The notes beneath the pieces are model-generated. The model was not told the origin of the DNA. It was given only the letters and a program-made list of their open reading frames with translations, and searched no databases. A DNA stretch of 64,000 nucleotides from positions 2,804-66,803 of the forward strand of contig DJHM01000042.1 in assembly GCA_002433075.1 (NCBI GenBank), given 5' to 3'. Position 1 is the first letter of the stretch; each line of letters opens with the position of its first letter. Both the position numbers and the translations under genes were made by a program. This DNA is from Latescibacteria bacterium UBA6620. Its GTDB lineage: Bacteria > Latescibacterota > UBA2968. Below, one piece after another: positions 27,596-52,958 of this stretch.

Positions 27596-28715
27596 GGCGA
27601 ACGTGCTGCGACGCTCCATCACCGTTATGATCCTCACCCTATCCGGGGCGGTCTGGCCTTCTGCCTCCCCAGCGCAGGTTTTCCTGCGGGATGAGATCGC
27701 CACCACGCGACGCAATGCGATCGTCCGGGCCGTCGAGAAAGCCTCCGGTGCTGTCGTCAGCATCAACACACACCGTTACAAGGAGTACCCGCGCTACCGC
27801 GACCCGTTCTGGGGCGATGCGTTCTTCGGCAGTCCGGCCATCATCCGGGAACGAATTCCGAGTGTGGGGTCGGGATTCATCATTCGTGAGGACGGATACA
27901 TCCTCACGAACAGCCACGTCGTCGAAAATGCTCTTGAGATATCCGTCACTTTTCCCGATGGGCGAAAATTCGAGGTGACGGACACGGCCAACAATGTTCT
28001 GATGGATCGTCAGCACGACCTGGCGATCGTTCGTGTCGATGCAGACGGGCTCGAAGTACCCCCACTGGGCAGTTCTGAAGAAGCCATTATCGGGGAGTGG
28101 GTCATCGCCATCGGGAACCCTTTCGGCTTGACGATCCGGGACCCCAAGCCTACCGTCACCGTGGGTGTTGTCAGCGCTGTGGACCGTAATTTTCGACCTG
28201 AAGAGGACGGCCGAATCTACCAGGGAATGATCCAGACCGACGCTTCGATCAATCCCGGGAACAGCGGCGGACCGCTCGTCAACAGCCTGGGCCAGGTCAT
28301 CGGCGTCAACACTTTCATCTTCTCGCAGACCGGGGGTTCGCTCGGGATCGGGTTCGCCATTCCTATCGAGCGGGCACTCGAGGTCGCCAACCGCCTGATC
28401 GAAGGCGGCAGTCCCGATTTCTGGACCGGCCTCGTCATTCACAACAACAACCGGAGGATTGCCCGAGCCATGCGTCTGGCCACGGCCTCCGGAGCCCTGA
28501 TCACGTCGGTCGAGGAAACCAGCCCCGCCCAGAAGGCGGGACTCATCCCCGGTGACGTCATTGTCATGGTCAACGAAGAACTCGTAGACAGTGCGGACAA
28601 GGTCGTGGAGATCTTTCGCGAGGGAAGGGTGGGTGCGGTCTACGGCCTGAGGGTATTGCGAGGTCGGGTCGTGTTCAACGCGAGGCTCGTGCTCGAGCGC
28701 GATCCGAACAGCTGA
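27582..28715 (+). CDS. HtrA/DegP-family periplasmic serine protease with one PDZ domain.
   Basis: Trypsin-like catalytic triad (TNSHVV, D, GNSGGPL) and a C-terminal PDZ domain. The true start may be the internal MILTLSGAVW signal peptide (about 27627). Confidence 0.8.
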   Translation: MWTIEANVLRRSITVMILTLSGAVWPSASPAQVFLRDEIATTRRNAIVRAVEKASGAVVSINTHRYKEYPRYRDPFWGDAFFGSPAIIRERIPSVGSGFIIREDGYILTNSHVVENALEISVTFPDGRKFEVTDTANNVLMDRQHDLAIVRVDADGLEVPPLGSSEEAIIGEWVIAIGNPFGLTIRDPKPTVTVGVVSAVDRNFRPEEDGRIYQGMIQTDASINPGNSGGPLVNSLGQVIGVNTFIFSQTGGSLGIGFAIPIERALEVANRLIEGGSPDFWTGLVIHNNNRRIARAMRLATASGALITSVEETSPAQKAGLIPGDVIVMVNEELVDSADKVVEIFREGRVGAVYGLRVLRGRVVFNARLVLERDPNS

Positions 28716-28716
28716 T

Positions 28717-29361
28717 ATGCGAATTGCCCGTGAAGCACGGCCATTTCTGCTCGTGACTGGATTACCCGCCCTGGTTGCCGTCTATTGGGCCGTCCAGACG
28801 GCAGGACTGGCGGCCAACCTGCTGACGATACTACTGCTTGTCTTGACGGGATTTATCGCTTTCTTTTTCAGGGATCCCGAAAGGGTCTCCCCGCCCGAAC
28901 CGAACGCGATTCTGGCCTCGGGGGACGGGCGGATCGTAGCCGTCGAGCCGATCGAAGACCCTTGGGTCGGTGACGCGGTCAAGGTCAGCGTTTTCCTGTC
29001 GATTTTTAACGTGCACGTCAACCGGATGCCGTGTGCGGGCAGAGTGGAGCGAGTAGAACACGTCCCCGGACAATTCAAGCTCGCCTTCGTGGACAAGGCC
29101 TCAGAAGACAACGAGCGCACCGAGATCGCCGTCGAAGGGGCGGCGGGACGAGTCATCGTCAAACAAATCGCGGGCTTGATCGCCCGGCGCATTGTTTGTC
29201 GTCTTGTGCCAGAGCAACGTGTCGAAGCCGGGGAACGTTTCGGGTTGATTCGTTTCGGATCCAGAATCGATCACATCCTGCCCGCATCAGCAGAAATTCG
29301 AGTCGCCATAAAAGATCGTGTTCTTGGCGGCGAAACTGTCATCGGAGTCCTTACAACATGA
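28717..29361 (+). CDS. psd: Phosphatidylserine decarboxylase proenzyme (short form).
   Basis: About 214 aa. FNVHVNRMP motif and an FGSR self-cleavage site. It precedes pssA. Confidence 0.75.
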   Translation: MRIAREARPFLLVTGLPALVAVYWAVQTAGLAANLLTILLLVLTGFIAFFFRDPERVSPPEPNAILASGDGRIVAVEPIEDPWVGDAVKVSVFLSIFNVHVNRMPCAGRVERVEHVPGQFKLAFVDKASEDNERTEIAVEGAAGRVIVKQIAGLIARRIVCRLVPEQRVEAGERFGLIRFGSRIDHILPASAEIRVAIKDRVLGGETVIGVLTT

Positions 29362-30098
29362 CCAAACGAGCGGCGGTTCCGAGTCTCTTCACGATCTGTA
29401 ACCTGTTCTGCGGATTTTTGTCGATCTACTACGCCTCCCGGGGACATCTGGTTCCCGCTTCCTGGCTCATCGTCATCGCGGGATTCCTCGATGCTTTCGA
29501 CGGGAAGATCGCCCGGCTCTTCGACGACGGATCCGACGACGGGCAGTTCGGTCTCCAGTTCGATTCCCTCGCCGACGTCTGCTCCTTCGGGTTTGCCCCT
29601 GCCGTCCTGATGCTCCACTACTTCGAACCCTTGCTGCACATCCGATGGCTCCCCTTCCTCGTGGCGTTCGTCTACCTTCTGTGCGGCGCGTTGCGTCTAG
29701 CTCGATTCAATGTGCATCACGACGTGGACGACGAGGACGCGGTGAAACCCGACTTCATCGGACTCCCGATCCCGGTCGCGGCAGCCACGCTGGCCAGCTA
29801 TATCATCTTCAGTCAGCTGGTCTGGGAAAGCACGCGGGAGCCTCACGTGGCGCTGTCACTCTGCGCTTTCGTCGCGTTCCTGATGATGAGTCCCTTCGAC
29901 TATCCATCGTTTCCGCGGTTTACGTTCGAAACGGCCCGCGACCGCTTTCGTCTGGCCCTGTCTTTCGGAGCACTCGTGATTGTCGTCGTGGCAACCGAGG
30001 AGGCATTCTTCCCCGTAGCCCTGACCTTCTGCCTGTCGGGCGCAATCAGATGGTTGGTCCACATCGTCACGGACCGCGAAGTCGCCGACATCCACTGA
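29357..30098 (+). CDS. pssA: CDP-diacylglycerol--serine O-phosphatidyltransferase.
   Basis: CDP-alcohol phosphatidyltransferase motif DG(x2)AR...G(x3)D(x3)D: DAFDGKIARLFDDGSDDGQFGLQFDSLAD. The start at MTKRAAV overlaps the psd stop. Confidence 0.8.
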
Positions 30099-30134
30099 CA
30101 TACCTATCAAGCCGGAGCGCATATCTTACAAGAC

Positions 30135-30416
30135 ATGGGTAGACGCAACGTTGGCTTCCTGATTGTCGCCATTTCCGTCGGAATCCTCGCCGGGAACATC
30201 GTTGGCGAAGTGCTCGGTGTTCTGTTCGAGAACCTGGGCCTGCAGAACAACGTCGTCCAGAAGGTGCTCGTCGATCCGCTTGTCCAGTATGAGTTTTATC
30301 CGATCCGGCTGAATCTGATCGTCATGACAATCACGTTGGGATTCTCACTGAACTTCAATGTGTTGAGCCTGCTCGGAATCGGAACCGCTTGGTACTACGT
30401 CAAGTATTCCTATTAG
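30135..30416 (+). CDS. Small two-helix membrane protein, hypothetical (DUF4321-like).
   Basis: 93 aa with two hydrophobic helices. GC content is slightly lower than that of its neighbours. Confidence 0.4.
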   Translation: MGRRNVGFLIVAISVGILAGNIVGEVLGVLFENLGLQNNVVQKVLVDPLVQYEFYPIRLNLIVMTITLGFSLNFNVLSLLGIGTAWYYVKYSY

Positions 30417-30478
30417 TTAAGTGGTGCGTCTCCCCGCAGGAGGCCGGCGGCATAGCCGCCCCTTGAAAGGAACGACCA

Positions 30479-30715
30479 ATGTTACAGGGCATCGGAACCT
30501 GGGAAATACTCCTCATCTTTCTGGTCGTGTTGCTGGTCTTCGGCGCCAAACGCATCCCGGAAATTGCCAGAGGTATGGGAAAAGGTATTACGGAGTTCAA
30601 GAGGGCCGTCCGGGATGTGAAAGACGAGATCGAAACCGGTACGGAAGCCCCCCCACCATCCAGCTCGGCATCCGCCGATCAGCCGGAGGCGGAGGAAAAG
30701 AAGGTGGAGTCCTGA
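30479..30715 (+). CDS. tatA: Twin-arginine translocase subunit TatA/E.
   Basis: ILLIFLVVLLVFGAKRIPEIARGMGKGITEFKRA is the TatA signature (TM helix followed by an amphipathic helix). Acidic C-terminus. Confidence 0.85.
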   Translation: MLQGIGTWEILLIFLVVLLVFGAKRIPEIARGMGKGITEFKRAVRDVKDEIETGTEAPPPSSSASADQPEAEEKKVES

Positions 30716-30724
30716 TTCAGGCTG

Positions 30725-32200
30725 GTGGGAAGAAGAGTGGGAGAATCGAACGAGCTTAACGCCAGATCGGCACACGAGTTGCTTCCCCTGATCCTGAAGG
30801 GCGAAATTACGGCACTCGTGGTATGCGAAGCCGTCCTTTCCGCGATCGACGCGCAAGACGCCGAAGTCAACGCCTACATCACGGTCGACAAGGAAGGCGC
30901 CCTCGCACAGGCCGATTCCGTCGACAAACGCCTCGCTAACGGCGAGGACGTCGGCCCCCTCGCTGGAATCCCCGTTGCACTCAAAGACCTCATCTGCACC
31001 CAGGGTCTACTGACCACCTGCGGCTCCAACATCCTGCCTGATTTCGTTCCACCTTACGACGCCACGGTCACTCAACGACTGCGACATGCTGGAGCCGTGA
31101 TTCCCGGCAAGCTCAACATGGACGAGTTCGCAATGGGATCCTCCAACGAGAATTCCGCCCGCGGACCGGTCCGGAATCCACACGCCACCGACCGGGTTGC
31201 CGGAGGATCCAGTGGAGGATCGGCAGCAGCCGTGGCCGCGAACGAAACGGTCCTCGCTCTCGGCTCGGACACAGGAGGATCGATTCGACAGCCCGCCTCT
31301 TTCTGCGGCGTCGTAGGCCTAAAACCCACTTACGGCCGCGTGTCTCGTTACGGCCTCGTCGCCTACGCCTCCTCGCTCGACCAGATCGGCCCTCTCGGCC
31401 GGAACGTCACCGACACCGCCCTCCTCTACGATGTCATTGCCGGACACGATAAAAGCGATGCGACGTCGGCCGACCTCGCATTCGAGCCCACGCTCCCTTC
31501 GATCAACAAGGGCGTAGAAGATTTCGTCGTCGGCGTGCCCACAGAGTATTTCGCTGAAGGGCTGGACGCCGAGGTCCGTGCGCGTGTCGAGCAGGGAATC
31601 GCCGCACTCGAGGCGGCCGGGGCAACGACCCGTGAAGTGTCCCTCCCCGTCGCCGGACATCCCGACTATGTCATCGCCAGCTACTACGTCGTTGCGACAG
31701 GCGAGGCCTCGTCGAACCTCTCCCGGTTCGACGGAGTCAAATACGGTCTGCGGGTCGAGGGTGAAGACCTTGGCGATACCTACTGTTGCACGCGCAGCGC
31801 GGGCTTCGGGGACGAAGTCAAGCGCAGGATCATGCTGGGCACCTATGCGCTCAGCGCCGGTTACTACGACGCCTACTACCTCAAGGCACAGCGCGTCAGA
31901 ACGCTGATCAAGCAGGACTTCGAGCGCGTGTTCGAAGACTGTGACGTGCTCGCTGCCCCGGTTGCACCCACACCCGCCTTCCGGATCGGCGAAAAAGTGG
32001 ACGACCCGCTGCAGATGTACCTGTCGGACATCTATACGGTAGCCGTGAACCTGGCTGGCATCCCCGGAATCTCCGTGCCGTGCGGCGCGTCGTCAGAAGG
32101 TCTGCCCATCGGTCTCCAGTTACTTGCACCTCCGTTCGAGGAATCGCGGCTCTTTCGTGCCGCCCGAGTCGTTGAATCCGAAGGAGGCTCCACCACGTGA
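30725..32200 (+). CDS. gatA: Glutamyl-tRNA(Gln) amidotransferase subunit A.
   Basis: Amidase signature [12 protein letters not shown] and catalytic Ser-cisSer-Lys residues. About 490 aa. Confidence 0.9.
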
Positions 32201-33651
32201 GCGACTTCGAAACGGTCATCGGCCTGGAAGTTCACGCCCAGCTTGCCACTCGAACCAAGATCTTCAGTGGGGCACTCGTGTCGTTTGGCGACGAACCCAA
32301 CACCAACGTCACCCCCCTCTGTCTGGGCCTCCCGGGTACTCTGCCCGTCCTCAACCGGCAGGTCGTCGAACTCTCGATGCGAATGGGATTGGCCGTTGGA
32401 TGTACGATCCAGACACGCAGTCGATTCCTTCGGAAGAATTACTTTTATCCCGATCTGCCCAAGGGGTATCAGATCTCCCAGTATCAGAGTAACAATGAGA
32501 TGCCGCTGGCAACGGGAGGCGGCATTGAAGTCGTCACAGCCGACGGGGGCACGCGCTTCATCCGGCTCGTACGAATCCATATGGAGGAGGACGCCGGCAA
32601 GAGCATCCACGACGAACCGTTCGTTCCCCCTGGCGAATCCATGGTCGACTACAACCGGACCGGCGTTCCCTTGATCGAGATCGTCTCCGAGCCGGACATA
32701 CGAACCCCGGAAGAGGCTTCCCAGTTCGTCAACCGCCTTCGCGAAATCCTCGTCTACACAGGCGTCAGCGAGGGTGACATGGAGAAAGGCCACGTGCGCA
32801 TCGACGCGAACGTGTCCATCCGCCCTGTCGGGAGCGAGGAACTCGGCGTCAAGGTCGAAGTGAAGAACATGAACTCCGTTCGTAACTGCCAGCGCGCCCT
32901 TGAAGTCGAGATCGACAGACAGATCGATGTCGTCAATTCAGGCAGAGAGATCATCCAGCAGACCATGTTGTTCGACCCCGTTCGCGAGGATGTCCGCCCG
33001 ATGCGAACCAAGGAAGCGTCCGATGACTATCGGTACTTCCCCGACCCCGACCTCGTCCCCATCGTCGTCGATCAGCCGTGGATCGATCGCGTCCAGTCGC
33101 AGATCCCGGAGCTTCCAGCCGCCAAACGGGAACGGTTCGAGTCGGATCTGAACCTGTCGCAAGATCAGGCTGATGTTCTGACCGCAGACCGTCAGACCGC
33201 CGACTACTTCGAGGCCGTCATCGCGGTTGGAGTTGAGCCTGCCACTGCCGCGAATTGGGTCCAGGGCGACGTTCTCCGAACCCTCAACGAAGCGAAAATC
33301 GAAATCGACCAGCTTCGTGCGACCCCGGCGCAGCTCGCCGCCCTGATTCATTTGATCGATAACGGCACAATCAGCGCAAACGTCGCCCGCAAAGTCTTCG
33401 CCGAAATGGCCAGCACGGGCGACGATCCGTCCGACATCGTCGAGCGACAGGGTCTCGTACAAATTAGTGATGAGAGTGCACTCGAAACGACCGTCGACGA
33501 ACTGATCGCCGCACACCCGGACGAATTCGCCCGTCTCAAGGAAGGCGACAAGAAGCTACAGGGCTTCTTCATGGGGCAGATCATGAAAGCCACGAAAGGG
33601 CAGGCCAACCCGAAGATCGCCAGCCAGCTTCTGGCTCAGAAGGCGCAGTGA
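32197..33651 (+). CDS. gatB: Aspartyl/glutamyl-tRNA amidotransferase subunit B.
   Basis: [17 protein letters not shown]-terminus and a GatB/YqeY C-terminal domain. 4-nt overlap with gatA. Confidence 0.92.
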
Positions 33652-35870
33652 CATCTTCACCAGCCGACGAGGGCTTCGGGAGCGCGAGACTCGACCCTCC
33701 GGACGACGTGATCGCCGGGAGCCGCAGAACCTGGCGATTGACCTATACGGCTGGCAACCACGCGATCCGCCCCGGCGGCAGGATCCGCATCTATTGCGAC
33801 AGCGACACCGACCGTGCCCTGCCCCAGTTCGGGGATCCATCCGGTCCCGACTACACGACCGTCACCACACCCGACGGAGTGTTCGCCGACGCGCTGGCTC
33901 CGAACTACAAGGTCCTGATCCTCACCCTGCACGGCCGAGATCTGCGGCCCGGCGAACAGCTCGTCGTTACCTATGGCGACACCTCGAGCGGCAGTCCCGG
34001 ATTCCGATCCCAGACGTTCCTCGAAAATCGCCACACGTTCGACATCTCTGTTGCCCGATCAACTGAAGACCCGCTCCATCCCCTTCCCGAATCGCCCGCC
34101 CAACGCATCGTGGGCGGGGACATTGATCGACTCGTGGTCGTCGCTCCATCGACAGCCGTCGTTGGTCGCCCCTTCCGTCTCCTCGTTCGGGCGGAGGACC
34201 CGTGGGGGAATCCAGCATCGTTGTTCAGGTCGCGGGTCACCCTGACCAGCGATGCCGTCAAGCTGCCTCAGTCCGAAATCGAATTCACGGAAGCCGAGGG
34301 TGGGGTTCGGTGGCTTGACGAATGTCGCCCGAGTAAAACCGGGCGGGCCACCATCGAAGCCGAAACGGATGGCGGTTGCGTCGGGCGGAGCAACCCCTTG
34401 AGAATCGAGGACGAATCTCCGGACCACGAACTGTTCTGGGGCGACTATCACGGCGGCCAGGTCGAGAACGCCGAAAAGATCGACGACTTCTTCCGCTACG
34501 CACGGGATGTTGCAGGCATTCAGTTCGCAAGCTATCAGCGGAACGATACGGTCCACTCGGACGCGGAGTATGCCGTCCAGCAGGAGGTCGAACGCGCCTA
34601 TCACGATCCCGGCCATTTCGTCGCCATCCCCGGATACGAGTGGTCCCCCGCAACACGCGTCGGAGGTCACCACAACGTCTACTTCAGGCGATTCGACCAG
34701 CCCATCCGCAGATGGACGAGCGCCCGTCTGCCTGGCCACGACACGCGCTACGACCTCCCCCACGTACGTGACCTCTACCGTGCCTTTCGCAACACGGACA
34801 CCGTCATCACACCCCACGTGGGCGGAAATCATTCCAACCTGCATTGGCACGATCCCACGGTCGAACCCGCGGTTGAAATCACCTCGGACCACGGCAGCTT
34901 CGAATGGATGCTGAAGGAAATTCTCGCCTACGACTATCGTATGGGCTTCTTCGGTGGAAGCGACAGCCACACGGGCCGCCCCGGCCGTGACAGTCCCGGT
35001 CACCAGCACCGGCGATACGCAAACTCCGGACTGGCCGGCGTCTATGCCGAGGACGTCACGATCGACGCGCTGCTCGACGCCCTCAAGGCTCGGCGCATCT
35101 ACGCCACGACCGGTCCCCGCATCCAGGTAAAGACCGAGGCCGACGGCCATCCGATGGGAGCCGAATATGCGACCTCTTCATCTCCTGAGATCAAGGCCTC
35201 TGTCACCGGTACGGCTCCGCTCGAGTCCGTAGAACTCTACCGGGGTCACGAACCCGTCTACGCCTACCCCATCGACACGCCGACGACACCCACTCGTGTC
35301 CGAATCCTGTGGGAGGGCGCCAGCCGTGAGACGAGCTACTCAGGCGTCGTGTGGGAAGGCTCGCTCAGCATCCTGGACGGGGAGCTGTCGAACGTCCACA
35401 AATTGCGTTTCGACAGCCCTCGCTCGTATCTGTCAGATACGCCCCCGGGGGGGATCTCGTGGTACTCAGTCACGTGTGGTTATCGAAGTGGATTTACCTT
35501 CGATGTCGACTCACAGGAAGCCCGTCTCGACCTCGCGTTTACGACGAGTGTGATGACCGGCCCGAAGTACGAGAACCGTGGAGAGAGTGGTGCGCTGCGC
35601 ATCGCACACGCACCTGCTGACCGAGTCGCTTCGACAATCCAGGTCGCCGAGCTTTCCGACGGACCTCGAGTCATCGATCTGGGTCATCTGAACCGCCGCA
35701 TCACCATCGCCCTTGCCCCCGAACCCACCACCGAGCACGTCGAACTTTCCTTCGAAGATCCTGCACCTCAACCCGGGGTCAATCCCTACTGGCTTCGGAT
35801 TGTCCAGGTCGATCAGGAAATGGCCTGGTCCAGCCCGATCTACGTCGACTTCGCGGCGCCTTCAGGTTAG
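33648..35870 (+). CDS. DUF3604-like putative metal-dependent phosphoesterase/hydrolase, with an N-terminal extension of about 260 aa.
   Basis: The C-terminal region matches the DUF3604 pattern (LFWGDYHGG...GYEWS...TPHVGGNHS...SDSHTG...GLAGVYAEDVTIDALLDALKARRIYATTGPRI). ATGA start/stop overlap with gatB. Confidence 0.5.
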   Translation: MTSSPADEGFGSARLDPPDDVIAGSRRTWRLTYTAGNHAIRPGGRIRIYCDSDTDRALPQFGDPSGPDYTTVTTPDGVFADALAPNYKVLILTLHGRDLRPGEQLVVTYGDTSSGSPGFRSQTFLENRHTFDISVARSTEDPLHPLPESPAQRIVGGDIDRLVVVAPSTAVVGRPFRLLVRAEDPWGNPASLFRSRVTLTSDAVKLPQSEIEFTEAEGGVRWLDECRPSKTGRATIEAETDGGCVGRSNPLRIEDESPDHELFWGDYHGGQVENAEKIDDFFRYARDVAGIQFASYQRNDTVHSDAEYAVQQEVERAYHDPGHFVAIPGYEWSPATRVGGHHNVYFRRFDQPIRRWTSARLPGHDTRYDLPHVRDLYRAFRNTDTVITPHVGGNHSNLHWHDPTVEPAVEITSDHGSFEWMLKEILAYDYRMGFFGGSDSHTGRPGRDSPGHQHRRYANSGLAGVYAEDVTIDALLDALKARRIYATTGPRIQVKTEADGHPMGAEYATSSSPEIKASVTGTAPLESVELYRGHEPVYAYPIDTPTTPTRVRILWEGASRETSYSGVVWEGSLSILDGELSNVHKLRFDSPRSYLSDTPPGGISWYSVTCGYRSGFTFDVDSQEARLDLAFTTSVMTGPKYENRGESGALRIAHAPADRVASTIQVAELSDGPRVIDLGHLNRRITIALAPEPTTEHVELSFEDPAPQPGVNPYWLRIVQVDQEMAWSSPIYVDFAAPSG

Positions 35871-35872
35871 CG

Positions 35873-36616
35873 ATGTCCACGGACCAACCCTGGTACGATC
35901 GTTTTTTCCAGCAGGAATACCTCACCTTCGACGACCATCCGACGACCGATCGTGAGATCGAATTCGTCGTGCGCACCCTCGACCTGAAACCCGAAACAAC
36001 CCTCCTGGACTTCGCGTGCGGCTACGGACGACACGCCCTTCCCTTGGCCAATCACTGCAGAGTCATCGGGCTCGACCGGTCCCCCAAGATGCTCTCTGCG
36101 GCTGTAGCGCGTAAGGCCCAAACCGGCTACGCCTCTTCGCCCCATATCGTCCGCGGCGACGTGCGCCAGCCTCCCTTCATCGAGGGTGCCTTCGACGCCG
36201 TCATCAGCCTCTTCTCGTCCATCGGCTACTTCGAAGAAGACGATGTGAACTTCCGAGTTCTGGCCAACATTGCTGATGCGCTCCGTCCGGATGGAGATTT
36301 CCTGCTCGAAACCGTCAATCGTGAGTTCATCGTGCGTCACTCCGCGCCCCAGCAGGTCTACCATCCTGAGGGAATGACCGTTATCGAAGAGCGAACGTTC
36401 GATCCCGTCTCTGGACGGTCCCACGTGGACGTCACTGTCATCCAGGACGGCAAAGAGACCCACCTCTGGCACACGATCCGTGTCTACGCATTCACCGAGA
36501 TCGAGATGCTGCTACAAGCCGTCGGCCTCCGACCCCTCGACGTATGGGGCGACTTCGAGGGAGGTCCCTACACGTGCGATAGCGAGCACATGATCCTTCA
36601 GGCGCGAAAGGCATGA
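35873..36616 (+). CDS. Class I SAM-dependent methyltransferase.
   Basis: Motif I LLDFACGYGRHALPLA and motif II DAVISLFSS. About 247 aa. 4-nt overlap with the downstream gene. Confidence 0.7.
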   Translation: MSTDQPWYDRFFQQEYLTFDDHPTTDREIEFVVRTLDLKPETTLLDFACGYGRHALPLANHCRVIGLDRSPKMLSAAVARKAQTGYASSPHIVRGDVRQPPFIEGAFDAVISLFSSIGYFEEDDVNFRVLANIADALRPDGDFLLETVNREFIVRHSAPQQVYHPEGMTVIEERTFDPVSGRSHVDVTVIQDGKETHLWHTIRVYAFTEIEMLLQAVGLRPLDVWGDFEGGPYTCDSEHMILQARKA

Positions 36617-37281
36617 GCGATCATCTCATCGTTTTCGCCAAGGACCCTAAACCCGGCAAGGTGAAGACGCGCCTCTTCTCCCGGTTCAGCCCCGAAGATG
36701 CGGCCGGCCTCTATCGGGCTTTTATTCTCGACACGTTAAAGAAAGCGCTCTCCGTTTCCGCGGATTGCCACCTGCTCTGCTACGCACCAGCCGACGCCGA
36801 AGTGTCGATGCGGGGGATCGCAGGCCAAGGATGGATCCTCACCCCCCAGAGTGAGGCGGACCTCGGTGTCAGGATGGCCACCTCGCTTCGCCACAGCCTG
36901 AACTCCGGCGCGGAGCGCGTGATTCTCATCGGAACGGACATACCCTCCCTCCCCTCCAACCACCTTACTCAGGCCTTTGATGCACTCAAAGACAACGACG
37001 TCGTCCTCGGCCCAAGTACAGACGGAGGCTACTACCTCATCGGTGTCAAAGCGGACCATCTGGGGCTATTCGAGGGCATCGAATGGAGTACCCCGACGGT
37101 TTTCGCCTCCACAACACGCCGAATCCAGTGGGCGGGCCTTCGTCTTGCCCTTGTCCCGCCCTGGTATGACGTGGACACGCCAGAGGAGGTCGCTTTCCTG
37201 GCCGCACACGCAAAAGCGGCGGGCGATGCGGAATGGGTACCCGAAGAGACACTCGCTTTTCTGTCCCGGCTGAAGGGATAG
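36613..37281 (+). CDS. DUF2064 (TIGR04282-like) nucleotide-diphospho-sugar-transferase-fold protein.
   Basis: N-terminus LIVFAKDPKPGKVKTRL is the hallmark of DUF2064 / 'rSAM/selenodomain-associated transferase 1'. The GPSTDGGYYLIG motif is present. Confidence 0.6.
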   Translation: MSDHLIVFAKDPKPGKVKTRLFSRFSPEDAAGLYRAFILDTLKKALSVSADCHLLCYAPADAEVSMRGIAGQGWILTPQSEADLGVRMATSLRHSLNSGAERVILIGTDIPSLPSNHLTQAFDALKDNDVVLGPSTDGGYYLIGVKADHLGLFEGIEWSTPTVFASTTRRIQWAGLRLALVPPWYDVDTPEEVAFLAAHAKAAGDAEWVPEETLAFLSRLKG

Positions 37282-37299
37282 AACCTCGTTGCCTTCTGT

Positions 37300-37840
37300 G
37301 ACGCACTCGTAATTTCAGGGCCAAAGGCCCGCCATTCTACAACCCAGCCCACCTGTCCCACCGAAGCCTTGGCGAAGGCGGACCGGGCTGGGTACCGTAA
37401 CCCAAATTCCCAAAAGCGAGGTCGCAGTCCTACAGACCGCACGGCGTTGTTGCGCACAATGACCCCGGGAGCGATGCCCTGGGCTGCAGAATGACGCGCC
37501 TTCAGCGCTGGCTACCGATAAAGCAGTCATCCCAGACGCAGGGCCAAAGACCCGCCCACCCTGCAATCTGCGAACAAGAACATTGTCACCCCGGTACGCC
37601 GTTTGGCCGGGGCCCATTTTGACTTTCGCGAAGATCAAAATGGGCCCCGGCCAGAAAACCGCCGGGATGACAATACTCGCGACGATCCTACCACGCGAGA
37701 CGCCACACCGGCGCGCCCTGTCGCGCCGATCAACGCTCCCCGGTACGATCACGGCCCGCTTCCCCGACTTCCCTCATCGGTTTCCATTCGATATCTTGAA
37801 CGCGCCTGCAAACGACACCACTCCGGTCCGACGAACGAAC
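37300..37840. repeat. Intergenic cluster of palindromic and direct repeats (REP/MITE-like).
   Basis: 48-nt near-perfect palindrome at 37605-37652 (ggccggggcccatttt / gactttcgcgaagatc / aaaatgggccccggcc). Direct repeats cagggccaaag[g/a]cccgcc at 37316-37333 and 37539-37556. The ORFs on both strands here encode mirror-like peptides (WPGPIL.FAK.KMGPGQ) and are artefacts of the palindrome. Confidence 0.5.
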
Positions 37841-37846
37841 TAACCG

Positions 37847-38818
37847 ATGGGGATCCCCGTGAACCGCAATCGCCTGCTCCTGCTATCCCTCATCATTGCC
37901 CTCAGTACAACCGCCGACGCCCAACCTTATCGATTCTCATTCGTCACGCACGGAGGGCCAGGCAATCCGTTCTGGAACGTCGTCATCAAGGGCATAGAAG
38001 ATGCCGGCGAGCGATACGGAATCGAGGTGCAATGGCTCAGCAATCCTTCCTTCTCGATCGAGGATATGCCCGAATTCCTGGACGACGCCCTCGCTCGCCA
38101 GGTGGATGGCATCGGCATCACGTGCCCCGACCCCGAGGCCATCCGCGAAAGCGTGGAGCGAGCCCAGGAAGCCGGTGTTCCCGTCATCGTACTCAACACG
38201 GCCGACCCGAACGCAGCGGGCCCGGATGCCTTGCCCACGATGTTCTACATCGGCGCCAGCGAGTTCCTTGGGGGGCAAAGCAATGCCAGGGCAATCCTCG
38301 CCGAGGCCGCACGCCGAAACGTCGAGCTCCAGCGCGCCGTATGTCCCATCCAGGAAATCGGGCACAGCGGGCTGGAAGCGAGGCTCGCTGGCTTCAAGAG
38401 CATCCTCGAACCCGCCGGTGTTACGGTTGACGGACTGACGATTTCCAATGACATCGAGCAATCGTCGGGTCTGCTGAGCGACTACTTCCTCAGCCATCCG
38501 CAGTCGACCGCAATCGCCACCCTCGGCCCGCTTCCCGCCGACGCATTCTACCTCTTTGTCGACGACAGCGGCCGGGACGACATCCTGCACGCGACCCACG
38601 ACACAAGCCCGGCCATCTTCGAGCGCATACGCCGCGGTACCACGATTCAGGCCATCGATCAGCAACCCTACCTGCAGGGGTACCTGGCCGTCGTTTTCCT
38701 CTACCTCAACCTCGAGTACGGGTTGAGCCTCGCGCAGGATGTTTTGACCGGGCCCTTCGCGATCGACCGGCACAACGTGGATCGCGTATCCAAACTCGTC
38801 GATCAGGGTGTCCGTTGA
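37847..38818 (+). CDS. Sugar ABC transporter periplasmic substrate-binding protein (RbsB/LacI-type fold).
   Basis: Signal peptide followed by a periplasmic-binding-protein type I fold. It sits upstream of a cognate permease and ATPase. Confidence 0.75.
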   Translation: MGIPVNRNRLLLLSLIIALSTTADAQPYRFSFVTHGGPGNPFWNVVIKGIEDAGERYGIEVQWLSNPSFSIEDMPEFLDDALARQVDGIGITCPDPEAIRESVERAQEAGVPVIVLNTADPNAAGPDALPTMFYIGASEFLGGQSNARAILAEAARRNVELQRAVCPIQEIGHSGLEARLAGFKSILEPAGVTVDGLTISNDIEQSSGLLSDYFLSHPQSTAIATLGPLPADAFYLFVDDSGRDDILHATHDTSPAIFERIRRGTTIQAIDQQPYLQGYLAVVFLYLNLEYGLSLAQDVLTGPFAIDRHNVDRVSKLVDQGVR

Positions 38819-40017
38819 TCCTGGGGACGCGCACCCGGCATATCCTCGCCCGCGAGCCGGCGGCCGGAGCAGGGGTCGGCTTCCTGTTCGTCTTCGCTTT
38901 CTTCACCCTCGCCGCCCCAGACACCTTCCTGACGCACGCATCTCTTTCTTCCATTCTGAGCAGTCAGGCCGTTCCAGGCATCGCAGCAATCAGCATCACC
39001 TTGCTCATGATCTCGGGGGAGTTCGACCTCTCCGTGGGTTCAATTCTGGCCGTTTCCTCCCTCGTTTTTCTCAGCTCCACTGTCGGCGGCACACCGATTC
39101 TACTCGCTGCGCTGCTCGGTATTGTCACCGGATGCGGACTGGGCCTGATCAATGGGCTCTTACTCGTCTGGACCCGCATCCCCTCGTTCATCGTCACCCT
39201 CGGCACGATGCTGGTCTTTCGTGCGATCCCATTGACCGCCGTGTCTGGTGGCCGCATCGTCCGCTACGCCGACTTCTCACGCGAGGACCCTACGATTGCC
39301 GTGCCTGGTCTCGTCGTGCTTCTGGGCGTGTCTGCCCTGACAGTCATTGTCCTCTGGATCGCCTTGCCCGTCCTTCGCCACCGGGAAGGCGCGACCCGTG
39401 TTTCTGCGGGACTCGCAGCGCTCGCGAGCCTCGTCGTCGTTTACATCCTGCTGCGCTCGCTCGACACGCACGGCCTCTCCCCCTTTGCGCGTGTCGAATT
39501 CAACGTGTTTCACATCCTCAATGGACGAGCCGACCTCGGGCTGCCCGGTACGAACTATCGAACTTCTATTGTCTGGTGGCTGGGGCTGACAGGGGTCTTC
39601 GCCTTCATCCTGCTTCACACTCGCTACGGCAACGCCGTCTTCGCCACCGGAGGGAATTCGGAAGCCGCCCGAGTACAGGGCATCGACGTCGACCGCGTGC
39701 GAATTAAGAGCTTTGTGTTATCCGGCGGGCTGGCGGCCCTCGCGGGCATCATCCAGGTGGCACGACTGAAGAGCGTCGATCCGCTCCGGGGACAGGGGTT
39801 GGAGCTCGAAATTATCGCCTCCGTTGTCATCGGCGGCACACTTCTATCCGGAGGCTTCGGGAGTGTGGCAGGATCGGCGATTGGCACAGCACTCACCGGG
39901 ATGCTCAGAACGGGGCTCGTCCTGATCAGCGTTCCCTCGAACATTTTCCGCGGGGCGATCGGCGCCATCATGATCGGCGCGGTGGTCATCAACACCTACG
40001 TCAGGAAAGATCGATGA
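38815..40017 (+). CDS. Sugar ABC transporter permease (RbsC/branched-chain-type).
   Basis: Ten predicted transmembrane helices. ISGEFDLSVGSILAVSS motif typical of ribose/xylose-family permeases. 4-nt overlap with the binding protein. Confidence 0.75.
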   Translation: MILGTRTRHILAREPAAGAGVGFLFVFAFFTLAAPDTFLTHASLSSILSSQAVPGIAAISITLLMISGEFDLSVGSILAVSSLVFLSSTVGGTPILLAALLGIVTGCGLGLINGLLLVWTRIPSFIVTLGTMLVFRAIPLTAVSGGRIVRYADFSREDPTIAVPGLVVLLGVSALTVIVLWIALPVLRHREGATRVSAGLAALASLVVVYILLRSLDTHGLSPFARVEFNVFHILNGRADLGLPGTNYRTSIVWWLGLTGVFAFILLHTRYGNAVFATGGNSEAARVQGIDVDRVRIKSFVLSGGLAALAGIIQVARLKSVDPLRGQGLELEIIASVVIGGTLLSGGFGSVAGSAIGTALTGMLRTGLVLISVPSNIFRGAIGAIMIGAVVINTYVRKDR

Positions 40018-40838
40018 CGCCGCTGATCGAACTGGAGGGCATCGGCCAGAGGTTCGGGCATATCACTGCCCTCTCCGACATCGATCTGCAGCTGCACGCC
40101 GGCGAGGTCGTCGCACTGTTGGGAGACAACGGGGCGGGTAAATCCACGCTCGTCAAGATCCTCTCTGGCGCCCACCGGCCCACGTCGGGCCGAATCCTGT
40201 TCGAGGGCCGCCCAGTCAGGCTCGATACCCCACAAGATGCGCGCGCACTCGGTATCGAAACCCTGTATCAGGATCTCGCGCTCATCCCCAGAATGAGCAT
40301 TGCCCGAAACTTTCACCTCGGGCGAGAACTGACCCGGCTCGTGGGTCCCGTCCGCGTGCTCGACCACGCGAGGATGAGCGCGCAGGCCTCGCAGGCGCTC
40401 GCGGACATCGGCATCCACGTTCGGAACACGGACGAGCCGGTCGTCTCTTTGTCGGGGGGCGAACGGCAATCGATCGCCATCGGCCGAGCCGTCCACTTCG
40501 GCAGCAAGGTCCTGATTCTGGATGAACCCACGTCCGCTCTTTCTATCGGCGAGACACGAAAGGTGCTCGGCTACATTCGCTCCGCGAGAGAGAATCGGAT
40601 GTGCGTCATCTTCATCACCCACAATCTGCATCACGTCTTCCAGGTGGCCGACCGGCTCGTGGTCCTGTCCCAGGGAAGGAAGGTGGCCGAACACCACAAG
40701 GATGAGGTGACCGAAGAACAGGTTGCCGATCTGATCATGAGCGAGCATCAAGAACTTGACGGTGAAGGACGACACCGTCACACTGAGCAGAGTCGAAGTG
40801 CCGGTTCCCCGAACAAGGGGCGCCAGCCTACTGGCTGA
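40014..40838 (+). CDS. ABC transporter ATP-binding protein with a single ABC domain.
   Basis: Walker A GDNGAGKST, signature LSGGERQ, and Walker B LILDEPTSAL. Confidence 0.85.
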   Translation: MTPLIELEGIGQRFGHITALSDIDLQLHAGEVVALLGDNGAGKSTLVKILSGAHRPTSGRILFEGRPVRLDTPQDARALGIETLYQDLALIPRMSIARNFHLGRELTRLVGPVRVLDHARMSAQASQALADIGIHVRNTDEPVVSLSGGERQSIAIGRAVHFGSKVLILDEPTSALSIGETRKVLGYIRSARENRMCVIFITHNLHHVFQVADRLVVLSQGRKVAEHHKDEVTEEQVADLIMSEHQELDGEGRHRHTEQSRSAGSPNKGRQPTG

Positions 40839-40843
40839 TTTCA

Positions 40844-42190
40844 ATGTCCCGGTTCGACTTCTCGATCACCCGTCCATATCTCGGTCTAACCTTACCGCTC
40901 GCCCTCTCCACCCAAGTGGAGAACCTCGTCGGCTTCGCCGAAATTTTCATGGTTCGATCGCTCGGTTCGGAGGCAATCTCGGCGGTCGGAATTGCAAGGA
41001 CGATCCTGTTCGTCCTTGGCATCACGATGATCGCGGTCGCGACCGGAACGATGGCGATGGTGGCTCAATCGGTCGGGGCCAAAGATTTGACCGACGCGAG
41101 CAAGACAGCGAAGCAATCGGTTACCCTCGTGATCCTCATCAGCTCTGTGATCAGCGCCTTGGGCATCCTTACGACGGACATCGCGCTCCGATTACTCAGC
41201 ATCCCTGAACCCGTGGCGATCATCGCAAGCCCCTATCTGCAGGTCGTTTACCTCAGCCTGCCGCTGATGGCACTAGATCGGACACTTGACTCGTGTCTGC
41301 ACGCCGCAGGAGACACGCGAACATCCTTCTACATCGCCCTCGTCTCAAACATCGTGCATCTCATCGGGGCCTACGCTTTTATCTTCGGGGCTTGGGGATT
41401 CCCCGAAATGGGCGTCACGGGTGCGGCGGTCGGGAACCTTGCCCGCACGGTCTTCAGCAATGCCATCCGGTTCGCCGTACTCTACTCGGGGCGGTTCGGC
41501 TTCACATTCCTACCGGGCACATCCTACACGCCAGAGTGGGACCGATCGAAAAGAATCCTCTGCATCGGAATTCCATCCGCGCTTCAGGGGCTCTTCAGAA
41601 ACGGTTCGAACGTGCTTTACATGAAGCTCGTAGCGATGACGGCCAATCCGACCGTCGCTCTCACCGCCTATTCCATCGGTCGTCAGATGGGCATCACGCT
41701 CCGACGAACCTCGCTCTCCTTCGGCACGGCGACTACGTCCATCGTCGGCCGAAGCCTCGGGGCCCGTGAACCCGATCGCGCAAACGCACGTGCCTATACC
41801 GCCCTCGTGCTTTCCGTCGGGATCCTGGGCCTCCTCGGAGGTCCCTTCTACCTGTTCGCCGAAGAACTAATGGGCATCTTCACGCAGGATGTCTCCGTCA
41901 TCCTCGTCGGGATTCCCTACCTCTACTCGCTTGCTGCCGCCGAACCCTTCATGTGTTCTGCGATCACGAGTCAGGGGACCCTGCGCGCTGCCGGAGACAC
42001 AGTATCCCCCCTGATCTATACAATCATCTCGCAGTGGCTGGTCCAGTTGCCGGTCGCCTACCTGCTCGCCTTCACGATCGGCTGGGACACCGACGGAATC
42101 TGGCTCGCCCTCGTAATCTTCAGCGCGATGCAAGGCTTCCTCACCGTGCGAAAGTTCACCCAGGGTCACTGGTTGCATCGAACGCTCTAG
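40844..42190 (+). CDS. MATE-family multidrug/solute efflux transporter.
   Basis: About 448 aa with 12 predicted transmembrane helices and the typical MATE two-lobe repeat. NorM-like. Confidence 0.7.
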   Translation: MSRFDFSITRPYLGLTLPLALSTQVENLVGFAEIFMVRSLGSEAISAVGIARTILFVLGITMIAVATGTMAMVAQSVGAKDLTDASKTAKQSVTLVILISSVISALGILTTDIALRLLSIPEPVAIIASPYLQVVYLSLPLMALDRTLDSCLHAAGDTRTSFYIALVSNIVHLIGAYAFIFGAWGFPEMGVTGAAVGNLARTVFSNAIRFAVLYSGRFGFTFLPGTSYTPEWDRSKRILCIGIPSALQGLFRNGSNVLYMKLVAMTANPTVALTAYSIGRQMGITLRRTSLSFGTATTSIVGRSLGAREPDRANARAYTALVLSVGILGLLGGPFYLFAEELMGIFTQDVSVILVGIPYLYSLAAAEPFMCSAITSQGTLRAAGDTVSPLIYTIISQWLVQLPVAYLLAFTIGWDTDGIWLALVIFSAMQGFLTVRKFTQGHWLHRTL

Positions 42191-42215
42191 CGAGGTCGGA
42201 TTCTCACCAAATCGA

Positions 42216-45950: not shown

Positions 45951-47195
45951 CTACCGCCAGAACCGTTCGACGCGTCCGCCCGCCTCCGCAACGGGCCAGT
46001 AACTCTCAGGCGCATCTTCCCACTTCGGCACCGTATGGCCGTCGCGCTCGAATTCGACCTTCCCTTTCCGCACCGTCATCACGCAGGACAGTTTCTCGGC
46101 TGAGTCCATCCGCGTAAAACCACAGTCCTGGAAGGAGAAGGATCCTTCCTCCACCTCGATCACGGCAACATCCGCCTCGGCGCCCTCGCTCAGCGTTCCC
46201 AGATCCGTCCGCCGAATCGCCTGTGCCGGCGTCACCGTCGACCGGTAGATGACATCGGTCAGCGACATCCCCATCGCCAAACACTTCGACATCGTATCGA
46301 GCATACTGATGACGGGGCCCCGGATATTTCCCATATGCAGATCCGTGCTGATCGAATCGGGTACGAACCCGTCTGCGATGGCTCGTGCACCGTTTCGGAA
46401 CCAGAAGCTGCCAGCCCCGTGCCCAAGGTCGAACCAAGTCCCACGCTCACGCGCCTCGTGCATATAGGGCTCCACCCTCTCGTTTTCGTCGATGACGGGA
46501 AATTGCCTCGCGAATACGTGCGTGTGAATATCACCGGGCCGCATCTTTTCCAGAATGAGATCCGGATAGGGACGATCCGGGGGTCGCGGCCAGAAATCGA
46601 CCATCACCGGCATTTCGCACGCCCTGCCGGCGTCGACCGCCTTCTCCACCGACTCCCACGGAGGATGCAGGTCGTCGAACGGCTCTCTCGTCCAGTAGTG
46701 GGCAGTCTTGATGCCGACCACGACGTCGCTGTGCCTGACCGCCGCCGCAGCCGCAGCATCCACGTCGAAGTTCGAAATCGTCTGTTCGGGGGCGCCCATC
46801 CCGGGTTTGGAGATGTTCATGTAGGCCAGGATGCGCGTGGTCGCTTTCTCGATTACGCTTTCCCGGAAGTGGTCCATCTCATTTGCTCCCGCCGTGCCCG
46901 TGTCCACGCACGTCGTCACACCCGAATTCAGGAAGTGGGCATCCGCATTCAGACTCGCCACGAACAGCCCGGGCCCGTCGTTCAGACGCCCCGTATAGGC
47001 GTGCACGTGGATGTCGATCAGCCCCGGCGTCACCAGCAGACCGCTGACATCCACGACGGCCAGCGCACCATCCGCAGGAAGCGAAGTCCCGACCTTCGCG
47101 ATCTTTCCATCCGCGATTGCCACATCAGCGATGCCGTCGACCCCGTTCGCGGGATCGATCACGCGTCCACCCTGAAAAATCAGGTCGTAGCTCAA
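45951..47195 (-). CDS. Amidohydrolase-family metallohydrolase (D-aminoacylase / dihydroorotase-like).
   Basis: DIHVHAY metal-binding motif and a TIM-barrel amidohydrolase fold. A Shine-Dalgarno aaggag precedes the ATG. Confidence 0.65.
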   Translation of the reverse strand: MSYDLIFQGGRVIDPANGVDGIADVAIADGKIAKVGTSLPADGALAVVDVSGLLVTPGLIDIHVHAYTGRLNDGPGLFVASLNADAHFLNSGVTTCVDTGTAGANEMDHFRESVIEKATTRILAYMNISKPGMGAPEQTISNFDVDAAAAAAVRHSDVVVGIKTAHYWTREPFDDLHPPWESVEKAVDAGRACEMPVMVDFWPRPPDRPYPDLILEKMRPGDIHTHVFARQFPVIDENERVEPYMHEARERGTWFDLGHGAGSFWFRNGARAIADGFVPDSISTDLHMGNIRGPVISMLDTMSKCLAMGMSLTDVIYRSTVTPAQAIRRTDLGTLSEGAEADVAVIEVEEGSFSFQDCGFTRMDSAEKLSCVMTVRKGKVEFERDGHTVPKWEDAPESYWPVAEAGGRVERFWR

Positions 47196-47214
47196 TTCGA
47201 ACTCCTTGTCATAT

Positions 47215-47244
47215 TATGGATGTTCAACTTATGGATGTTCAACG
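47215..47244. repeat. Perfect tandem duplication of a 15-mer (ttatggatgttcaac x2).
   Basis: It is directly upstream of the amidohydrolase start on the minus strand, about 25 nt before the Shine-Dalgarno sequence. Confidence 0.6.
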
Positions 47245-47469
47245 GTTCAGCACACCGACCGTCTTGTTGGCTGACCTGCCCCCGCCTTGAATCATCACGG
47301 TGTAGATCCCGTCACTCACGATACGTTCGTTCCGGTCTCTGCCGTCCCACTGCACCACGTTGATGCCCGCGTTCAGGCGGCGGCCCGTCACAACCTCTCG
47401 AATCAGGTTGCCGCCAACGCTGAACACGGCTCCAATTCCCCCAAAAAATGGGATTGCGACTTGCATCAC
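47239..47469 (-). pseudogene. Orphan T9SS C-terminal sorting domain, a remnant of a secreted protein.
   Basis: The 76-aa ORF ends ...NVVQWDGRDRNERIVSDGIYTVMIQGGGRSANKTVGVLNR, matching the T9SS type-A CTD pattern. No upstream catalytic domain remains. Confidence 0.4.
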
Positions 47470-52946: not shown

Positions 52947-52958
52947 CAGGAGGCAAGG

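Follow-up and report, generated by a model that had tools for sequence, protein, structure and literature searches.

The gene order downstream of gatB in the stretch of DNA analysed here (64,000 nucleotides, hereafter the window) is ordinary lineage-specific synteny. One modest lead emerges from it, i.e., the pair formed by an NmbA-like methyltransferase gene (MT) and a DUF2064 gene. The explanation preferred as a whole, which we regard as moderately probable, is that a conserved MT/DUF2064 pair and an accessory DUF3604 gene stand next to gatAB in an inherited order, and that no dedicated pathway is encoded.

Gene string and junctions

The order gatA-gatB-DUF3604-MT-DUF2064 is confirmed, with 5 of 5 genes on the same strand and tightly packed. 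The features of the locus are the following:

30737..32200, + strand: gatA, Asp/Glu-tRNA amidotransferase subunit A (TIGR00132, 607 bits vs. cutoff 481; Pfam Amidase match)
32197..33651, + strand: gatB (GTG start; NF004014, 642 bits vs. cutoff 414)
33648..35870, + strand: DUF3604-family gene (740 aa; GTG start; PF12228)
33648..34412, + strand: DUF3604 residues 1-255, N-terminal all-beta (Ig-like sandwich) domains (model secondary structure; Foldseek)
34419..35117, + strand: DUF3604 residues 258-490, PHP-like beta/alpha barrel (best PDB fold match 3E38)
35118..35867, + strand: DUF3604 residues 491-740, C-terminal beta-sandwich domains (model)
35868..35875, + strand: DUF3604/MT junction, TAG-CG-ATG, 2-nt spacer
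35873..36616, + strand: MT gene (247 aa; putative NmbA-like class I SAM-dependent N-methyltransferase)
36613..37281, + strand: DUF2064/TIGR04282 GT-A-fold transferase gene (222 aa; ATG start)
37582..37674, no strand: nested inverted repeat (long hairpin) of 93 nt, within the 565-nt gene-free gap 3' of DUF2064
37847..42190, + strand: sugar-type ABC transporter and MATE, the conserved downstream neighbours of DUF2064 in the lineage
37847-38818, + strand: sugar ABC substrate-binding protein (SBP)
38815-40017, + strand: sugar ABC permease
40014-40838, + strand: sugar ABC single-NBD ATPase
40844-42190, + strand: MATE transporter

The ORF of gatA opens with a GTG at 30725; the start given in the public gene call is 30737. 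As read from the sequence, three junctions are 4-nt overlaps: (i) GTGA at 32197-32200 for gatA/gatB; (ii) GTGA at 33648-33651 for gatB/DUF3604, with a GTG start; (iii) ATGA at 36613-36616 for MT/DUF2064. At the DUF3604/MT junction TAG (35868-35870) is followed by CG and by ATG (35873), i.e., the genes do not overlap. The earlier note on this DNA had counted four start/stop overlaps; three of them exist and the fourth, DUF3604/MT, is a near-abutment. It had also read ATGA at 33648, where the sequence is GTGA (the 4-nt overlap itself stands), and at 35870-35873, where no such motif is present; its ATGA at 36613-36616 is borne out.

Overlaps of 4 nt account for 7 of the 15 same-strand junctions in the string from cbiQ to MATE, and cbiQ and truA, a functionally unrelated pair, also overlap by 4 nt. 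Overlap is thus the local norm, even between unrelated genes, and is no mark of shared function. The upstream string consists mostly of housekeeping genes (cbiQ, truA, HtrA-like protease, psd, pssA, DUF4321, tatA, gatA, gatB). The source contig was assembled from marine metagenomic DNA; its closest named relatives are Latescibacterota, and the host is thus a marine bacterium related to that group. The hairpin at 37582..37674 (MFE -67 kcal/mol, z = -9.5) occurs once in the window and is not shared by relatives; a transcription unit may end there.

Conservation of the locus in relatives

The backbone gatA-gatB-(MT)-DUF2064-(sugar ABC)-MATE is found in the related loci L002, L003/4, L005, L086, L087/88, L090, L097, L102, L171 and L172, with identities to the window of 65-87% for GatB and 45-70% for DUF2064. 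The slot after gatB holds a DUF3604 gene in two sublineages only, represented by the window, L002, L003/4 and L005. The slot is empty in L171 and L102. In L003 it holds, besides DUF3604, a DegT gene, an esterase gene and a second DUF3604 paralogue. Genes on the opposite strand (sulfatase and HEAT-repeat) lie between gatB and DUF2064 in L087 and L172; L087 has also a toxin-antitoxin pair on the same strand, and L172 has two sulfatases plus HEAT.

The earlier note had described DUF3604, MT and DUF2064 as a three-gene module. On the contrary, the distribution of each gene is independent of that of the other two: L086, L090 and L097 have gatB-MT-DUF2064 without DUF3604, L005 has DUF3604-DUF2064 without MT, L171 has gatB-DUF2064 alone, and L171, L102, L087 and L172 lack both DUF3604 and MT. 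It must be added that L086 is a sister of the window: the GatB tree and the DUF2064 tree both place it with the window and L002. The MT/DUF2064 overlap (ATGA or GTGA) is kept in five loci (window, L002, L003, L086, L090), and in L097 and L091 no more than short gaps separate the two genes.

The neighbourhood and co-occurrence check leads in the same direction. DUF3604 is found in 0 of the 85 loci retrieved via DUF2064, and DUF2064 in only 3 distinct loci of the 80 retrieved via DUF3604. The 76 other DUF3604 loci have lineage-specific, catabolic-looking neighbours unrelated to those of the window (enolase-superfamily, PhyH, SDR, metallo-beta-lactamase, GHL6, xylose-isomerase-like TIM barrel, aminotransferase). 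Distances of 1.7-3.9 Mb separate the DUF3604 orthologue from DUF2064 in three complete Latescibacterota genomes, the positions being 5.68 vs. 1.76 Mb in OZ244960, 3.58 vs. 1.22 Mb in OZ244028 and 4.43 vs. 2.76 Mb in OZ242320.

Nevertheless, the adjacency is not a peculiarity of the window, a case that the earlier note had named as refuting its view: it is kept at 74% DUF3604 identity (L002) and at 55-56% (L003/L004, L005), the full DUF3604-MT-DUF2064 order being kept down to 56%. The 4-nt gatB/DUF3604 overlap is also present in L002. Taken together, these two points make some selection for co-expression possible. The DUF3604 gene has no GC or codon-usage anomaly and is thus not a recent foreign insertion. 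Since the DUF3604 copies at the gatB slot are each other's best matches, ancestral presence followed by several losses fits equally well as repeated gain. The coupling to gatAB, described earlier as tight and unusual, comes down to conserved DUF2064 synteny within one lineage and not to a special coupling of three genes.

Properties of the three proteins

The earlier note identified the three genes correctly, the first as a DUF3604/PHP-like hydrolase, the second as a class I methyltransferase and the third as a DUF2064/TIGR04282 protein that has CofC/MobA-like features. The DUF3604 protein belongs to PF12228 (62.2 bits vs. cutoff 20.4), although the 591-position profile is matched only in parts; its isolated central domain gives 69 bits. 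It falls below the CehA/McbA model NF038032 (51.5 bits vs. cutoff 80). GTG 33648 is the sole start that preserves the family-invariant Gly11. Full-length homologues have 48-74% identity and no signal peptide is found in the protein. The AlphaFold model (pLDDT 93, pTM 0.92) gives the three parts listed above: residues 1-255 match Ig-like and GH2 accessory domains in Foldseek and no Pfam family, and the barrel has as best PDB fold match 3E38, a PHP-like metal-dependent phosphoesterase (E 1.6e-9, probability 1.00).

The candidate metal ligands of the barrel (D266, H268, E331, H341/H342, H390, H415, D439, H441) sit at, or just past, beta-strand ends in the model. Among 136 DUF3604 sequences, H268, E331 and H390 are invariant, and conservation of D266 and D439 is 90% or higher. 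Within the subfamily of the window H341, H342 and H415 are conserved, and H441 is His in 53 of 72 sequences. The barrel also carries a set of subfamily-invariant arginines. Structure prediction and active-site mapping, both suggested earlier, thus give a PHP-type barrel with a candidate ligand set. A distorted beta/alpha barrel with candidate ligands at strand ends corresponds, as modelled, to the PHP superfamily of metallohydrolases, and the protein is, judging from the model, a cytoplasmic PHP-type metallohydrolase. Like 3E38/BVU_3505 and the CehA/McbA carbaryl-hydrolase family, it has a conserved ligand pattern, here D-x-H, E, H, H, H, D-x-H. It differs from PHP hydrolases and CehA/McbA by its first motif, which is D-x-H and not H-x-H, and by its large N- and C-terminal beta-sandwich domains. 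Neither a solved structure nor a known substrate exists for any member of its subfamily.

MT matches class I SAM methyltransferase models in the profile search. Its best solved relative is PDB 9RI2 (98.7 bits; 49 bits for the second PDB match), i.e., CtNmbA or CT1040, the N-methyl-bacillithiol synthase of Chlorobaculum tepidum (PMC12719100, PMC6282198). The match is full-length and collinear, with 34% identity by BLASTP over residues 7-245 of 247 (E 2e-33). The sequence criteria published for NmbA are BLAST E < 1e-20, coverage > 80% and identity > 25% to CT1040, with a similar length (PMC12719100). MT agrees with all of them, its E value being that of a pairwise comparison and the paper's that of a database search. 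The NmbA similarity network of the same paper used a 35% identity floor, and the 34% of MT is just below it (PMC12719100). An alignment with CtNmbA and six orthologues gives as common features: (i) motif I (xLDxAxGxG); (ii) the Y-F pair after the FSSxG motif; (iii) the N-terminal W-x-x-x-F...YL cap strands; (iv) the IEER and GD(F/Y)xG blocks. The host lineage is in the FCB group, where NmbA is common, and bacillithiol biosynthesis genes are reported from Latescibacteria single-cell genomes (PMC4454575); no Bsh-type domain is found among the Pfam-annotated gene calls of the window. For nmbA, the literature searched describes no overlap with a DUF2064 gene like that of MT. Most likely, MT would methylate the free amine of bacillithiol or of a similar amino compound. 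The earlier statement that none of the three genes has an established function is therefore to be qualified for MT, since among characterised enzymes its nearest relative is NmbA, a bacillithiol N-methyltransferase.

The DUF2064 protein belongs to PF09837 (120 bits) and to TIGR04282 (203 bits vs. cutoff 134). The current NCBIfam name of TIGR04282, « arsenosugar biosynthesis glycosyltransferase », rests on genomic association with the radical-SAM protein ArsS (TIGR04167) and the GT2 transferase TIGR04283. These usual partners, noted earlier as absent, are indeed found neither among the Pfam-annotated gene calls of the whole 64 kb window nor among the annotated families that recur around DUF2064 in the 85 related loci. 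Unlike the typical TIGR04282 setting, the conserved neighbours here are gatB, the NmbA-like MT, a sugar ABC transporter and a MATE pump. The protein matches PDB 3CGX, a « putative nucleotide-diphospho-sugar transferase » of Desulfovibrio (E 2e-36 over 189 residues), and, like it, bears the invariant motifs of the family, i.e., G15-x-V-K-T-R-L and G-x-D-x-P. There is also a match to FbiD 6BWG (E 3e-4) and a weak one to Pfam CofC (33.5 bits vs. cutoff 22), and the score for the CofC/FbiD guanylyltransferase model TIGR03552 is below its cutoff (49.9 bits vs. 105). CofC/FbiD and MobA-type nucleotidyl transferases share with it the GT-A fold family and the K-T-R-L nucleotide-binding loop; unlike in the CofC/MobA cases, no F420 or molybdopterin genes are near DUF2064. 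The likeness is one of likely chemistry and not of family membership.

Alternative readings and proposed explanation

DUF3604, MT and DUF2064 might jointly make or modify one small molecule or cofactor and be expressed with gatAB, which we consider unlikely. The tight spacing and the order retained in L002 and L003/4 argue for it. In L003 and L005 the slot after gatB also carries genes for a DegT-type sugar aminotransferase and an esterase, and DegT plus an N-methyltransferase plus a nucleotidyl-transferase-like enzyme could be read as an N-methyl-amino-sugar route. However, a joint pathway is already weakened by the presence/absence pattern (independent losses of DUF3604, of MT or of both), by the co-occurrence counts and the megabase distances in complete genomes, and by the frequency of overlaps here, unrelated genes included. 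It is very unlikely that the pair serves arsenosugar biosynthesis, with DUF2064 as the glycosyltransferase of the ArsM/ArsS pathway and MT as arsenite methylase. The family name and score of DUF2064 point that way, and in L084, L087 and L172 a permease gene of the ArsP_1 family follows DUF2064 at a distance of a few genes; but ArsS and GT2 genes are missing from the window and from the recurrent neighbours, and MT gives 20.4 bits with the ArsM model (PRK11873, arsenite methyltransferase; cutoff 263), vs. 99 bits with NmbA. Moreover, the literature searched ties no tested function to TIGR04282.

A functional tie to GatCAB, with aminoacyl-tRNA used or modified by the downstream enzymes or the amidotransferase pathway as their target, is extremely improbable. 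It is true that MT and/or DUF2064 come after gatB throughout a divergent lineage (GatB identity ~65-87%), sometimes with gaps of only 6-11 nt. Yet unrelated genes split gatB from DUF2064 in L087 and L172 (opposite-strand sulfatase/HEAT, plus toxin-antitoxin in L087), L084 is without gatB within 8 kb of DUF2064, and more distant DUF2064 genes keep quite different neighbours. The upstream string (cbiQ, truA, psd, pssA, tatA) is itself a mixture of unrelated housekeeping genes.

In the explanation that we prefer, the stretch would be the tail of a long co-directional, mostly housekeeping string, holding two parts of different age. The older part would be the lineage-conserved, and presumably ancestral, MT/DUF2064 pair with its 4-nt overlap. 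Its DUF2064 enzyme, with G-x-x-K-T-R-L and D-x-P signatures of CofC/MobA type, would most likely perform nucleotidyl or glycosyl transfer to some acceptor, as far as the sequence indicates. The accessory part would be the DUF3604 gene, patchy in its distribution and wedged between gatB and the pair. This three-domain cytoplasmic enzyme would most likely act by hydrolysis on an anionic small molecule, at an ester or amide bond; its orthologues in other phyla lie in catabolic, sugar-related gene clusters. Co-transcription of the three genes with gatAB is probable, and translational re-initiation would be permitted by the overlaps. They would nevertheless form no dedicated pathway, and their tie to gatAB would reflect inherited gene order and not shared function.

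Gene order and junctions around gatA-gatB

The seven genes from DUF4321 to DUF2064 form a co-directional run on the + strand, as read from the ORF table and the junction sequences. MT denotes the class I SAM methyltransferase.

Features of the region (window coordinates; genes with a strand are from the ORF table)
30135-30416, +, DUF4321
30479-30715, +, tatA
30725/30737-32200, +, gatA
32197-33651, +, gatB
33648-35870, +, 740-aa ORF (DUF3604)
35873-36616, +, 247-aa ORF (MT)
36613-37281, +, 222-aa ORF (DUF2064)
37282-37846, gene-free gap of 565 nt, directly 3' of DUF2064
37847-40838, sugar-type ABC transporter, after the gap
40844-42190, MATE pump, after the transporter

DUF4321 and tatA (30135-30715) precede gatA, where gatC does not, and the order pssA-DUF4321-tatA-gatA-gatB is kept in all related loci examined.

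The earlier note described a chain of ATGA overlaps from gatB to DUF2064. ATGA is present at 36613-36616 (MT/DUF2064); gatB/DUF3604 and gatA/gatB both read GTGA, and DUF3604 starts at GTG 33648. The gatB/DUF3604 overlap is real, since no start codon other than GTG 33648 precedes the Gly11 that is invariant in the family. The overlap proposed between DUF3604 and MT does not exist: the sequence is TAG-CG-ATG, i.e., a 2-nt spacer. Of the 15 same-strand junctions between cbiQ and MATE (window 28000-42200), 7 are 4-nt overlaps, unrelated pairs such as cbiQ/truA and psd/pssA included. They are a general trait of this genome region and not special to gatB-DUF2064. As a new three-gene pathway tied to tRNA amidation, the finding does not stand.

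DUF3604, MT and DUF2064 are probably co-transcribed with gatAB, and the 4-nt overlaps would permit ribosome re-initiation. The gap contains a 93-nt nested inverted repeat (37582-37674), predicted to form a very stable hairpin (-67 kcal/mol, z = -9.5), and an 18-nt direct repeat, CAGGGCCAAAGGCCCGCC, at 37316 and 37539. The hairpin has no copies elsewhere in the window or in related loci. It may be a terminator-like element, possibly ending the gatAB-to-DUF2064 transcription unit, or the remnant of a small mobile element. The promoter scan found no sigma-70-like site, the terminator scan gave terminator-like sites at chance rate only, and an Rfam search of the whole window at gathering thresholds gave 0 matches.

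Distribution of the three genes among related loci

Profile scores bear out the family assignments: PF12228 (62 bits) for DUF3604, generic class I methyltransferase models for MT, PF09837 (120 bits) and TIGR04282 (203 bits vs. a cutoff of 134) for DUF2064. The grouping of the three genes into one module was approached from both sides. Homologue look-ups and a metagenome scan yielded the DUF2064 loci, 85 of which enter the carriage count. Scanning with the DUF3604 alignment (one genome per species) gave 80 loci, each 48-56% identical along the full length. One belongs to Opitutales and the others to Latescibacterota, Poribacteria and Chloroflexota/Dehalococcoidia/SAR202; all were compared with the window's proteins by tblastn.

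Gene order at related loci (L-numbers are locus handles)
L086: gatB-MT-DUF2064-...-ABC-MATE, without DUF3604
L090, L097: gatB-MT-DUF2064-MT2-MATE
L091: MT-DUF2064
L102, L171: gatB-DUF2064
L087: gatB-[opposite-strand sulfatase + HEAT; toxin-antitoxin pair]-DUF2064-ABC-MATE-ArsP_1
L172: gatB-[opposite-strand sulfatases + HEAT]-DUF2064-ABC-MATE-ArsP_1
L084: sulfatase-DUF2064-MATE
L002: 7.4 Mb assembly, DUF3604 74% identity, syntenic with the window
L003 (= L004): Latescibacterota OZ252228.1, DUF3604 56% identity, syntenic
L005: Latescibacterota JAAXHW01, DUF3604 55% identity, syntenic, without MT

These loci speak against the three-gene module. DUF3604 occurs in 0 of the 85 DUF2064 loci, and in three complete Latescibacterota genomes its orthologue lies 1.7-3.9 Mb from DUF2064. 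GatB and DUF2064 trees are concordant, L086 branching in each as the sister of the group formed by the window and L002; since L086 has no DUF3604, the presence of this gene varies even among close relatives. Conversely, gatA, gatB, MT and DUF2064 genes adjoin DUF3604 only in L002, L003 and L005. The other 76 DUF3604 loci have lineage-specific neighbours (enolase-superfamily, PhyH dioxygenase, SDR, metallo-beta-lactamase, GHL6, xylose-isomerase-like TIM barrel, DUF6785, aminotransferase) of a catabolic, sugar-related flavour. There is no universal DUF3604 partner gene: the best neighbour family, itself lineage-specific, reaches 25 of 81 loci.

The conserved backbone is gatA-gatB-(MT)-DUF2064-(ABC)-MATE, and the slot after gatB holds variable cargo, of which DUF3604 is one. 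gatB and DUF3604 are separated in L003 by DegT, a further DUF3604 paralogue (27% identity) and an esterase; L005 carries DegT plus a fragmentary esterase. These additional genes, a DegT-type aminotransferase and an acetyl-esterase-like hydrolase in both loci and the paralogue in L003, lie at 5458-9974 in L003 and 7996-9965 in L005. Each gene of the window's trio belongs to a known family, and their arrangement is one of synteny specific to the lineage. A foreign origin of DUF3604 was considered and rejected: neither GC and GC3 nor codon usage is anomalous, and the gene is therefore a long-standing resident or was transferred long ago. The locus would comprise two functionally independent parts: (i) an accessory cytoplasmic PHP-type hydrolase; (ii) a pair made of an N-methyltransferase and a nucleotidyl/glycosyl-transferase. 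The three-gene tRNA-amidation pathway is not worth following as such.

Other differences concern the surroundings. A second, different class I methyltransferase lies between DUF2064 and MATE in L003 (15404-16180), L090 (10777-11559) and L097 (10672-11418), a position occupied in the window by the sugar ABC transporter. The ATPase of the latter (40014-40838) is single-domain (274 aa), and its match to the ~500-aa two-domain sugar-import models is limited to their first half; that of the relatives is equally short (248-260 aa). An ArsP_1-family permease (PF03773) is found 1-4 genes downstream of MATE in L084, L087 and L172, followed in L087 and L172 by a Zip metal transporter; the window has neither. 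Amidohydro_2, Rieske, methyltransferase, FAD-oxidoreductase, PhyH, xylose-isomerase-like TIM barrel and GFO/IDH/MocA genes are clustered at ~46300-58900 of the window. Two of these families, PhyH and the TIM barrel, recur beside DUF3604 orthologues of Poribacteria and other Latescibacterota.

The DUF3604 protein

The protein has no signal peptide. With a 20-sequence alignment, AlphaFold gave a catalytic domain of pLDDT < 50; the model used, from 136 sequences of two subfamilies, has pLDDT 93 and pTM 0.92. It predicts N-terminal beta-sandwiches (1-255), a beta/alpha barrel (~258-490) and C-terminal beta-sandwiches. The PHP-like fold anticipated by the earlier note agrees with this prediction, the best PDB fold match being 3E38, a PHP-like metal-dependent phosphoesterase; apart from it, the matches are to generic Ig-like domains. 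Conserved candidate ligands are D266, H268, E331, H341/H342, H390, H415, D439 and H441. The window's subfamily has eight invariant arginines, which would indicate an anionic substrate. By profile search the protein falls below the CehA/McbA cutoff, and the PDB profile search gave no solved sequence relative, only chance eL33 matches. The literature search returned a single passing mention of DUF3604. The subfamily is spread widely across Poribacteria, Latescibacterota and Chloroflexota, and many members come from marine and sponge-type samples. The confident model, with its defined candidate ligand set and predicted arginine-rich pocket, can steer substrate screening.

The methyltransferase/DUF2064 pair

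The window, L002, L003, L086 and L090 all join MT to DUF2064 by ATGA or GTGA, and in L097 and L091 the two genes lie only a few bases apart, DUF2064 identity among the pair loci going down to ~48-51%. The pair, not the trio, is the unit kept by selection.

The best solved relative of MT is 9RI2 (98.7 bits; next PDB match, 49 bits), i.e., the Chlorobaculum tepidum N-methyl-bacillithiol synthase CtNmbA, which methylates the cysteine amine of bacillithiol (PMC12719100; nmbA genetics, PMC6282198). Pairwise BLASTP gives 34% identity over residues 7-245 (E 2e-33); by these values MT qualifies as an NmbA orthologue under the sequence criteria of PMC12719100, with an identity just below the 35% floor of its similarity network. 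The alignment also brings motif I, the Y-F pair and the blocks of the cap domain into register. The next-closest characterised relatives (CypM, MitM, DesVI, a daptide methyltransferase, glycine/sarcosine N-methyltransferase) are also amine-directed, therefore N-methylation of a small-molecule amine is a sound inference. An ArsM reading was ruled out by profile scores. Bacillithiol is the best specific guess for the substrate. Its biosynthesis genes are reported from Latescibacteria single-cell genomes (PMC4454575); no Bsh-type gene is found among the Pfam-annotated gene calls spanning the window. The window itself is part of a Tara Oceans marine-metagenome contig (174 kb), and flanking window genes are also on a 233 kb Tara scaffold.

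DUF2064 matches the JCSG structure 3CGX (E 2e-36) and, weakly, FbiD 6BWG. Its invariant residues include G15-x-V-K-T-R-L and G107-x-D109-x-P111, motifs typical of CofC/MobA/sugar-nucleotidyl transferases. TIGR04282 is presently named «arsenosugar biosynthesis glycosyltransferase» by NCBIfam because of its association with ArsS. Neither the window nor the set of recurrent neighbours of related DUF2064 loci contains ArsS, and the name calls for caution in such cases. The usual DUF2064 partners are missing as noted earlier, neither radical-SAM nor GT2 appearing among the Pfam-annotated calls of the entire window. The literature search gave nothing on DUF2064 and nothing functional for TIGR04282/04283/04167.

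It is conceivable, though improbable, that the translationally coupled NmbA-like MT and DUF2064, with the always-downstream MATE, act as one unit in making or modifying a low-molecular-weight, bacillithiol-type thiol or another N-methylated amino-sugar conjugate. If true, this would be the first functional context for DUF2064, independent of the arsenosugar name. The conserved NmbA-like/DUF2064 coupling is the only new lead of the locus. The NmbA-like MT widens the probable distribution of N-methyl-bacillithiol to include marine bacteria of the Latescibacterota type, and its 4-nt overlap with DUF2064 offers a testable lead for a family with a crystal structure (3CGX) lacking an assigned function.
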